The position numbers are program-made. A stretch of DNA of 64,000 nt from IMG/VR virus record IMGVR_UViG_2537562189_000009; one strand, given 5' to 3'. This DNA is from a virus. Lineage: Duplodnaviria > Heunggongvirae > Uroviricota > Caudoviricetes. This document shows, piece by piece, positions 28,859-31,800 of the stretch; the first letter of the stretch is position 1; each line of letters starts with the position of its first letter.

Positions 28859-31800
28859 TCACGACGAATAACCTGACCGTAACAATTATTTGAACGAATG
28901 CGGCAATCACGTCCACCGTCCTTTATCCACCAGCGAATCGCCTCGCATGCGCCTTTACGATCACCGGCATTAAGCCGCTTATAAAACGTCGACGGAAAAC
29001 ACTTACCAGGGCCAATGTTATAGGGACAGAATGACGCGATACCGGCTTTCTGTGGCTCGGTCAGTGGAACTTTTATATTGCGCTCCACCCATGCCAGCGC
29101 CTTATCACGCTCAATGGCGTTGACCTGGTCGCATTTTTCCTTCGACAGTTTCATATTGGGAAAAACGTTTTTTCCATCCACCACTGTGGCACCCCGACAG
29201 ATGGTCCATATGCCAGAACCATCGCGGTATGCCATTGTGTGGTTACCTTCTTTTTCGTCCAGAAACTGGTCAAGTATCTGAGGAGCAGATGCGCCAGCAC
29301 CAATCAGCGCCAGAACGGCAGCCGACAGGCCGTATCTGATTTTTGTGTTCATAGATATTTATGATGAGGACGCTCGTGCTTATTGGCAGGATTTTCAATC
29401 TTAAAGGAGTACTGATGCTGCAGATAAGACTCAACTTTTTCTGACAATTTTTCTGCTACTTCCAGGAAGACTTGCCGGACGCTCATTCTGGCTGCTACCT
29501 CATAAAACTCCAGCGCAGCTCCTTCAACACGGTCCATGGCGACATCCAGGCCAAAAATTTCACCGTCAAAGCGTTCTTTGTCCTGTAAGGCTACAGTTAC
29601 CGTAACTTTATTCTCAAAATTACGGACTCCTTTCACAACCAGTTCATAGTCTTGAGTCATTGGATTACTCTCCTCTCGCAGCCTTACGCCTGTCTTCTTT
29701 AATCTTGAAATAAAGATTTGTCAGGTACGTCAGCAGGCCAAATACCAGGCTACCCAGCACACCTATTGCTGCCCACTGTGAGGGCGTGACTTTATCGAGC
29801 AGCTGTAAAAACCAGTAGCCAGCACTGCCTGCGGAGGTGCCGTAGGCAATGCCTGTTGAAATTTTGTCCATGGATTTCATAGCCTCACCTCCGCACGGAA
29901 CGGATGGCATAGTTATTATGTGTAGGCTTCCAGACACATCAATCAGAGCCTTAATTGATATATATGCTGGAGACGATGCAATATAAAAAGCTCGCCGTAG
30001 CGAGCTAATAAAATGTATTTCTCTGATATTATGTTTATTTGTATTAGCTCAGACTTGACATCACAGGTTTCGTATATAGAACATCATCAAATCTGTCAGT
30101 TTGCTATGAATGAGATATAGTAATTGAAGAGCTAACCTCGCATGTCAAAGCCAGATTTCTGAAAATCTCTGTAGACTTCCGGATTGTTGAAGGCCGGAAA
30201 TTTGGCTTTATGAGCTGCGGACTTTATCGCTTCGCAATAGGCTTTATCACCGTTACTGGTAGATATTTTTAACGCCGTGCCATCCTGAGAGAATTCCATA
30301 TGCAACCTGCATTTTTTCCCTTTCCAGTTATGCGGCTCATCAAGTTTGGCATTAATTGCAGCTCTGATTCCCCGCGCTTGCGCCCCCCATTCATCCTGAT
30401 CATCCCAGCGTCCTGAACTGCAACTACCTGTAGCAGTAGTTTTGTGGCAATCTGAAGGGTGTAAAGGTGTGCATCCCGCAACAAAACCGACCCAAAAAGT
30501 CAACATAACGATTTTCTTTAATCCCACTTCTTGCTCCTCAATCCATTAAAATCTCAGCAATAGTAGTTGTTACGTCCGCCACTGGCTCAGAGCTGACTAT
30601 CCGCTAAATTTAGCTCAGTGCCGTAGTTGTGTCAGAACAAACCTAAGCCGAAACCGTTTATTACAAAACAATAAATATCAGGGTTTAAAATCCAGCACCC
30701 CATTTTGAAATACTTTATATACTTCCGGCGAAGGGGGGGCAGGTATATCAGCATTCTTTATCGCATTCATCGCTTCACGACATAAATCGAGGTCTCCACT
30801 TTCTCTTTTAACCTCCAGTAGAAGGCCATTCGGGGCCATATGCATTCTCAGTGTACACTCTTTTCCTGAATACTTACTCGCATCCCCGAACTGTTTTTCG
30901 ATGGCGCTCTTGATTTGATGGGCATACAGACGGATATCCTCACTAACATCAGAAGTACGTTCAGATGAACTCACATACTGTGTCTCTATTGCTTTATCGG
31001 AGTAATATGATGTACGGTCATGATAATTTGTCGATACAGCATCAGTGCACCCGATAATAATCCCACTAATAATCAACGTAAGAATTGATGCGCTACGAAA
31101 ACCCATTTTTCCTCACATATGTCATATAGTAAAGGATTATATATACCGTTGTTTTGGACGCTCAAACAGCGAATCAGATCAAATAAAACGCACATTTGTT
31201 AACATTTACACAAAGTCTGCGTGGGATATTCTGAAAGAATATCCATAATGTGGAGAGAATCTATTGAAGTGCATGGTGCCGGGTGCCTCCCGGTGAATTC
31301 AGTACCAGCACCTGAATCCGCGATTATCCCATATACCTACTCGCTGATTGCCCCTCCGCACAGGGGGATTCACCATGCCAGTTTCTTTTAACAAACTCCC
31401 CGCAAACCAGAGAACAGTCAACCGCCTGAATTGTGAAGTATTTAAAAATTTCTCCCGCTAACTGATACCCGGCTAACAGTCTGGCGTTTTCTTTTTCAGC
31501 AACGGGAAAGCAACAACCACCACACCCGCCACCAGCACACCGTCAGCCAGCACTGATATTATCCGGCTGCTGCAATGCCATTCACAAAAACAGTAAGCAA
31601 TCACTTTTTACCGTAACAGGTGATAATCCAGATATGTATCTACCCCAGATGAGTAATCCGAAGTTCATCCATACCACAGGTCCTGGCTATTCTGTTGTAC
31701 TCCTGAACAAGAGCAAATAATTCTGAATTAGCAACCATGAACTCATCGCAAACCCTCTGTATAGCATCACTATTCAGAATAATAACGTCTCTTCCCGAAA

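Follow-up and report, generated by a model that had tools for sequence, protein, structure and literature searches.

Two prophage lipoproteins with TolA domain III as candidate decoys of the TolA tip

Gut Escherichia coli populations are shaped to a large extent by group A colicins and filamentous phages, and the known means of protection against them are immunity proteins, receptor loss and receptor-blocking lipoproteins. Cor (phi80, N15 and mEp phages), Llp (T5) and TraT (F) are small outer-membrane exclusion lipoproteins of mobile elements, which protect the cell carrying the element. Here we describe two lipoprotein genes, called A and B, in a lambdoid prophage sequence of 64,000 nucleotides from the class Caudoviricetes (IMG/VR record IMGVR_UViG_2537562189_000009; this whole stretch is referred to as the window). 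The products of A (142 aa) and B (131 aa) each have a lipoprotein signal followed by a tether and a copy of the C-terminal domain III of TolA (TolA-III). We propose, with a probability of roughly 0.45, that A and B act as outer-membrane-tethered, motor-less decoys, which trap group A colicins and g3p of filamentous phages.

The binding strands of E. coli TolA-III have been described. The TolB N-terminus, colicin N (ColN) and g3p-N1 bind the beta3 strand by beta-strand addition, and either D418P or K420P abolishes this binding (PMC4339652). Colicin A (ColA) binds a different strand, 375-380 (PMC3365938), and g3p of If1, an I-pilus phage, has been seen bound to TolA-III (PDB 2X9A).

Sequence and fold of the two lipoproteins

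Gene A was called as an open reading frame (ORF) at 30678..31106 (minus strand, as are all features of the window cited below), with an ATG start codon and GAGGA ahead of it, and corresponds to RefSeq WP_000506936.1, named 'tolA'. The PROSITE-type lipoprotein rule (PS51257-type) asks for K/R among the first 7 residues, a hydrophobic core and a lipobox [LVI][ASTVI][GAS]C inside residues 15-35. The product of A follows it with R4, a hydrophobic core and the lipobox IIGC with Cys20; the signal peptide and lipobox occupy residues 1-20 (31047..31106), and T and D are found at +2 and +3. The Ser/Thr/Tyr-rich linker of about 31 residues (30954..31046; residues 21-51) is disordered in the AlphaFold model, where the predicted local distance difference test (pLDDT) is below 50. 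The TolA-III domain, delimited by the secondary structure of the AlphaFold2 (AF2) model and the TolA alignment, occupies residues 52-142 (30681..30953) and ends in ...VLDFKP.

Gene B, called at 30132..30527, starts with GTG after a Shine-Dalgarno sequence GAGGAG at 30534-30539 and a 6-nt spacer; the RefSeq entry, WP_001348108.1, picks a later ATG and gives 124 aa. By the same pattern test, its signal peptide and lipobox are residues 1-19 (30471..30527) with K4, K5, a hydrophobic core and VAGC with Cys19, followed by T at +2 and P at +3. Conservation delimits an N-terminal module at residues 20-48 (30384..30470), CxPLHPSxCHKTTATGxCSSGRWDDQDEWG, which has two extra Cys and an acidic Trp motif. 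The TolA-III domain of B (residues 49-131; 30135..30383), ending in ...GFDMRG, was assigned by the TolA alignment, the AF2 model and Foldseek. The lipobox is retained across both the A and B families, and the ORF call and pattern test bear out the two signal peptides and lipoboxes of the initial annotation.

Pfam PF06519 'TolA C-terminal', whose gathering cutoff is 25, matches A with 82.6 bits (E = 2e-23) and B with 54.6 bits (E = 1e-14). Residues 55-142 of A align to E. coli TolA 334-421 without a gap (E = 5e-28), 52 of the 88 residues being identical (59%). B aligns to TolA 341-419 (E = 5e-9), and a gapless extension over 340-421 gives 27 identical residues of 82 (33%). The Cys363/Cys388 pair of TolA is kept as C84/C109 in A and C73/C98 in B, and the C-terminal ends of both proteins coincide with the last residue of TolA, 421. 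In the predicted AF2 models pLDDT exceeds 90 across both domains, and the secondary structure of the A domain, alpha-beta-beta-alpha-alpha-beta, is like that of TolA-III. Both models show the fold of TolA-III, in which a sheet of three strands packs against helices. The top Foldseek matches of the A model are E. coli TolA-III structures, with a root-mean-square deviation (rmsd) of 0.6 Å and a TM score of 0.96 for 2x9a_B; the B model fits 3qdp with an rmsd of 1.1 Å and TM 0.92. Alignment and structure prediction both give TolA-III for A and B, and the earlier view of a C-terminal domain of about 90 residues, close to host TolA in the 142-aa protein and more diverged in the 131-aa protein, has held up. 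The beta3 strand reads LDFKP in A, identical to TolA 417-421, and FDMRG in B, a conservative replacement, while the ColA-binding strand is LLDIKP in TolA, LLEVKR in A and ALKIST in B.

Both proteins are without the inner-membrane anchor (domain I) and the helical domain II of TolA and have a predicted cleavable lipoprotein signal instead. They are much shorter than TolA (421 aa), and their genes lie outside the tolQRA-tolB-pal-cpoB operon, between the phage Q/tRNA genes and the holin gene. Only the last 80-100 or so positions of full-length TolA models are matched (293-386 of 387 in NCBIfam NF007065), and the NF007065 scores are 107.8 for A and 53.7 for B against a cutoff of 213. A and B belong to the TolA_C domain family, yet they fail every other defining feature of TolA.

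The RefSeq names in use are 'cell envelope integrity TolA C-terminal domain-containing protein' and, for A, 'cell envelope integrity protein TolA'. The latter name arises because A passes the laxer model TIGR02794 (75.6 against a cutoff of 59.45); for a protein of 142 aa it is a misleading over-annotation, which has spread to hundreds of genomes and can distort studies of pangenomes and expression. The similarity to the TolA domain is thus already visible in RefSeq/Pfam annotation, and both proteins are full-length members of PHROG 5772 (E = 7e-65 for A and 2e-62 for B), which is labelled as of unknown function. In full-text literature searches, no work on the function of TolA-III lipoproteins from prophages or plasmids was found, the leads being reference-list matches or annotation remarks. 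A lead on ciprofloxacin induction, 'EDL933_2012 ... TolA', was dropped because the source table lists the gene as a tail fibre protein.

A and B had initially been regarded as tandem paralogs. The two proteins are 29% identical (E = 2e-18), with 30-31% identity between the domains, whereas the A domain and E. coli TolA-III share 59-60% identity. Since A is nearer to host TolA than to B, and B, a separate and widespread family, carries a conserved N-terminal module of its own and is distributed differently, we rejected a tandem duplication. As regards the donor lineage of A, the closest sequence seen is E. coli-like TolA. The named sources of A-type proteins in the protein search are limited to Escherichia and Shigella, and a word-indexed protein search with A or its domain alone returned only close A-type relatives and no full-length TolA. 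Among A-type variants the tether varies more than the domain, identity being 65-100% for the whole protein and 75-100% for the domain.

Candidate functions of a tethered TolA domain III

A lipoprotein without Asp at +2 goes to the outer membrane via Lol-dependent sorting, and this destination is expected for both A and B, which have Thr at +2. As independent cargo ('moron') genes, A and B would each provide a free TolA-III suspended at the inner side of the outer membrane by the lipid anchor and a tether of 20-30 residues, at the site where colicin translocation domains and the g3p tip enter the periplasm. Because the membrane anchor and helical domain II of TolA are absent, such proteins would be uncoupled from the TolQR motor and could transmit no force. 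By mimicking the co-receptor, they would capture colicins A, N, E1 and K, related bacteriocins, and g3p of Ff/If1-type phages. The captured complexes would be dead ends, since no force can be applied to them, and the lysogen or plasmid host would therefore be tolerant. A would mimic E. coli TolA closely, and B, from an older and diverged family, may have a different range of ligands or a conserved partner in the host.

The affinity of TolA-III is about 1 µM for ColN and g3p and about 40 µM for the TolA-TolB contact (PMC4339652), so that a moderately expressed decoy could filter invaders with limited damage to Tol-Pal. In the mirror-image experiment, periplasmic g3p-N1 sequesters TolA, which makes cells resistant to colicin A and lowers phage uptake by 4 logs (PMC10424213). 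Genes for TolA-III lipoproteins are also carried by conjugative plasmids, and this fits a decoy role because plasmid pili are the primary receptors of TolA-dependent filamentous phages. Together with this carriage, the conserved beta3 strand, the predicted outer-membrane sorting and the moron-type promoter-like site and terminator make a decoy, or a role in envelope remodelling, more plausible.

Several points weigh against this proposal. The location in the late operon means that A and B may be made mainly in lytic growth, when protection of the cell matters little. The conservation of B across genera (70-89%) suggests a conserved endogenous partner more than mimicry of the TolA of each host, and B differs from TolA at the ColA site (ALKIST; K368 -> E) and over the domain as a whole (33% identity). 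If a decoy captured the TolB N-terminus, Tol-Pal should suffer as well. Protein searches found A/B in mEp460 alone among the sequenced phages of the phage collection, and the PADLOC defence models match neither A, B nor the two neighbouring ORFs, including one of 117 aa. In addition, the promoter of A is a consensus match only, in a region with 11 promoter-like sites against 6.6 ± 2.4 in shuffled sequences.

Mature B has 113 aa in all 24 genes compared, which come from many genera, with no indels, and its dN/dS is about 0.10 at a dS of about 1. For the first 30 mature residues dN/dS is 0.08 and for the domain 0.11; because constraint on this putative linker at least matches that on the domain, we read it as a functional module. 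In the AF2 model, residues 20-38 have low confidence and residues 41-50 pack against the domain. The segment SSGRWDDQDEWG, with a G-x-W-acidic...W-G motif, might mimic the DGSGWSSE TolB box of colicins; in the profile search, this likeness was picked up by no profile.

A strongly constrained module with a Cys loop and an acidic Trp motif, absent from TolA, may indicate that the TolA/TonB-type fold has been re-used for another envelope partner (an outer-membrane protein, peptidoglycan, or a surface target as in serum resistance of the Bor/Iss/TraT type), with no role in Tol-dependent import. The difference in isoelectric point (9.2 for the basic B domain and 6.1 for the acidic A domain, against 8.6 for TolA-III) is consistent with this, as is the presence of a DsbC/G-like protein beside the type found on Klebsiella plasmids. 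Short TolA-III lipoproteins are also numerous and very diverse: an exhaustive HMMER search with B gave 130 representatives, 72 of them having 100-170 aa, and a lipobox is present in 53 of these 72. Nevertheless we consider a different partner unlikely, as A has 59% identity to E. coli TolA-III and an identical beta3 strand, the TolA C-terminal motif ...LDFK[PL] is kept in many of the short members, and no gene neighbourhood examined points to an alternative partner.

Mobile relatives and prophage setting

The B family comprises at least 370 clusters, and the best 120 listed are 78-89% identical to B, the sources being Citrobacter, Enterobacter, Serratia, Klebsiella, Raoultella and others. B-type genes were found at 30 loci in GTDB species-representative genomes, two of which are on 8-kb contigs of metagenome-assembled genomes labelled Lachnospiraceae (L017) and Treponemataceae (L018). 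These contigs are 98-99% identical to the IncI-type nikB/TolA-like region and are almost certainly mis-binned plasmid fragments, not genes of the labelled taxa. In Enterobacter, Citrobacter, Klebsiella, Serratia and Leclercia, B-type genes stand alone at loci that differ among genera. Their neighbours are common within a genus and not between genera; no recurrent partner gene was found, and no lysis or transfer genes were present near the chromosomal solitary genes in the neighbourhoods examined in many genera. Solitary occurrence and purifying selection are typical of a self-sufficient accessory gene using host partners, as B appears to be. In Serratia marcescens (L009, 8957-10736), a solitary B-type gene adjoins a GmrSD-type (PF03235) gene and a HEPN gene, which form a candidate defence pair.

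The A+B cassette of 1,051 bp is 99-100% identical in phage mEp460, and with at least 80% of its length covered it is present in 776 of 5,426 complete E. coli genomes, or about one in seven. The two genes might in principle be decaying, functionless fragments of a captured tolA, since RefSeq labels the 142-aa protein plainly as 'TolA' and truncated copies are present in databases. This is very improbable: both ORFs are intact and follow good ribosome-binding sites, their lipoprotein signals are newly acquired and their domains are modelled with high confidence, the cassette has been kept in the genomes counted above, and the low dN/dS of B across genera, at a dS near 1 and without indels, contradicts decay.

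On plasmids, B-type genes of about 88% nucleotide identity were found in about 600 cases. In IncI1/B/O plasmids the gene lies directly 3' of a nikB-type relaxase gene, with no detectable promoter between the two, and beside resistance-gene insertions (sul2, aph(6)-Id). The B-type copy of pO157 lies close to toxB, within a 2.7-kb segment left over from the IncI region. In the pO157-type plasmid pZ1626-1 (L003, 5853-8523), this 2.7-kb segment is 98.9% identical to the IncI-type nikB/TolA-like region on L017/L018 and is embedded between toxB and the hok/psiAB leading region.

A third type of TolA-III lipoprotein (144 aa, lipobox LITAC) is carried by about 300 plasmids, mostly of Klebsiella and Enterobacter. 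It is paired with a secreted thioredoxin-fold CxxC protein, which is DsbC/G-like (L013, 5217-6246, Klebsiella pneumoniae; the one plasmid examined is IncFIB/IncFII). A pair of genes for a UvrD helicase and an ATP-binding protein near this locus may be Gabija-like. Identity to E. coli TolA-III reaches 66-67% in some short lipoproteins, and free-standing TolA-III lipoproteins have probably arisen or diversified many times. More tentatively than for A and B themselves, we suggest that short TolA-III lipoproteins could be a widespread form of defence cargo in Enterobacterales, where they are found on prophages, on conjugative plasmids and in chromosomal islets. They would act just beneath the outer membrane, by imitating the co-receptor that group A bacteriocins and pilus-dependent filamentous phages use in the periplasm. 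Two unrelated copies, as in the present prophage, would widen the spectrum, and IncI/IncF plasmids would offset the vulnerability to phages that their own pili create.

Along the minus strand of the window come, in this order, Q (32483-33304), a tR'-like hairpin, tRNA-Met (32264-32339), tRNA-Arg (32104-32180), an STnc100 element, a promoter-like site, A, a spacer of 150 nt, B, a terminator and the holin gene (essD-type; 29665..29937), which is the first gene of the lysis cassette and is followed by a DUF1327 gene, the endolysin gene and Rz/Rz1. The A+B cassette is thus placed by sequence in the Q-dependent late transcript. The tR'-like terminator just downstream of Q (32383..32402) has a fold z of -1.17, which is not significantly better than shuffles. 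The promoter-like site, TTGAGC-18-TATAAT (31136..31165), about 30 nt upstream of the A start codon, matches the sigma-70 consensus at 10 of 12 positions and is one of the two best sigma-70 matches in 29600-32600. Between the B stop and the holin start, a hairpin with a U-run resembling an intrinsic terminator (29989..30006) has a folding energy of -13 kcal/mol and z = -2.85 against shuffles. G+C is 0.38-0.47 across the cassette and about 0.47-0.50 in the flanks. In related lambdoid/Stx phages the similarity is confined to the holin and tRNA flanks, and Stx2 phages have stxAB in this interval; the coordinates of Q, the tRNAs and the holin confirm the initial annotation in placing the two genes in the Q-to-holin slot that is occupied by stx in Stx phages. 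This layout resembles that of a moron within the late operon, with a predicted promoter of its own. An A-type gene of 80% identity in another E. coli prophage stands alone directly after tRNA-Ile/Arg, in the exact stx position and far from the holin; that prophage has a Stx-phage-like late region, with a gene for a SASA-family carbohydrate esterase further along.

A cassette directly upstream of the lysis genes in a Q-dependent late operon could instead, as the main alternative to a decoy, encode a Tol-Pal inhibitor that serves the element: the tethered TolA-III would compete for the TolB N-terminus (or Pal/CpoB), block Pal mobilisation and loosen the outer membrane. In the phage its action would come late, before that of holin, endolysin and spanin, and would aid lysis, vesiculation or release, and on plasmids it might ease envelope crossing during transfer; the position of B after the relaxase gene on IncI plasmids, with no promoter detected between them, would suit the latter. 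The TolB-binding beta3 strand is conserved, and TolA beta3 proline mutants without TolB binding show the full tol phenotype (PMC4339652). The conservation of B across genera also fits a conserved host partner such as TolB. We regard an inhibitor as rather unlikely, however, because the cassette has its own promoter-like site and terminator, and the A-type variant in the stx slot is far from the holin. Solitary chromosomal B-type genes under purifying selection are hard to square with a self-damaging envelope inhibitor, and the nikB-adjacent site of IncI plasmids takes resistance cargo (sul2, aph(6)-Id) as well.

Other features of the window were noted around the cassette. The STnc100 (PasD-related) small RNA element directly upstream of the promoter-like site of A (31217..31407) is a full-length match to Rfam RF02076 with 114 bits, and STnc100 marks this part of lambdoid/Stx prophages (bioRxiv 10.64898/2026.05.13.724894). 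The Stx-like prophage L015 has five copies of it in 943-3893, one directly downstream of the A-type gene and four in tandem further on. Between the tRNAs and the cassette, we found a 117-aa ORF with a TTG start (31640-31993) and a 43-aa ORF (31473-31604); in RefSeq the same interval has only a 28-aa DUF3927 peptide and a pseudogene fragment, and the 117-aa ORF is probably not a real gene. An ORF at 28375-28671, out of frame inside the Rz-like gene (28325-28822) and with a lipobox-like ...LTSC, corresponds to Rz1, the outer-membrane spanin expected here. The lysis cassette is closely followed by a cspA-type thermoregulator RNA (RF01766; 27704-28119) with a cold-shock protein gene (27750-27965). 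The early prophage region has a sok antitoxin RNA (RF01794; 36318-36492), and the hok-type locus is hokD in the identical prophage of E. coli 55989.

Comparison with known systems

The functional interpretation of A and B is plausible, and if it is true, a mobile decoy of the TolA tip would represent a different principle of protection, periplasmic co-receptor mimicry, as a variant of the exclusion-lipoprotein theme of Cor, Llp and TraT. The cassette, found in about one in seven complete E. coli genomes, and its relatives on pO157 and on resistance plasmids of the IncI type and of the Klebsiella group (IncF in the one examined) could have consequences for therapeutics based on colicins or phages, for the hosts used in phage display and for the fitness of cells that carry the plasmids. 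A and B also offer natural motor-less TolA-III probes for force transduction by Tol-Pal. If they are Tol-Pal inhibitors instead, they would be a means, encoded by phage or plasmid, of influencing vesiculation and the stability of the outer membrane.

With domain III of E. coli TolA (about 330-421; PDB 1TOL, 2X9A, 3QDP/3QDR and 1S62), A and B share the fold, the disulfide pair and the C-terminal register. Without domains I and II they have no link to TolQR or the proton-motive force; they would be held instead by an N-terminal lipid, with the outer and not the inner membrane as its predicted place, and their genes belong to a prophage and not to the tol-pal operon. The laboratory dominant-negatives, periplasmic g3p-N1/pIII and periplasmic TolA-III, titrate the contact between TolA-III and its ligands as is proposed for A and B. 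In 1993, Levengood-Freyermuth et al. reportedly obtained colicin-tolerant and leaky cells by exporting TolA-III to the periplasm. These constructs are soluble, over-produced and artificial, whereas A and B are natural, lipid-anchored and conserved, with their own predicted expression signals.

The morons located between Q and S of lambdoid phages (stxAB, with bor and lom as general examples) have the same cargo site in the late operon, a promoter-like site, a terminator and a deviating G+C. A and B, however, would encode mimics of an envelope protein and no toxin or adhesin. With Cor, Llp and TraT, A and B are proposed to share the general logic and have no sequence or fold relationship. Those lipoproteins have been shown to block an outer-membrane receptor (FhuA, OmpA), whereas A and B, to judge from their sequences, would imitate a periplasmic co-receptor.

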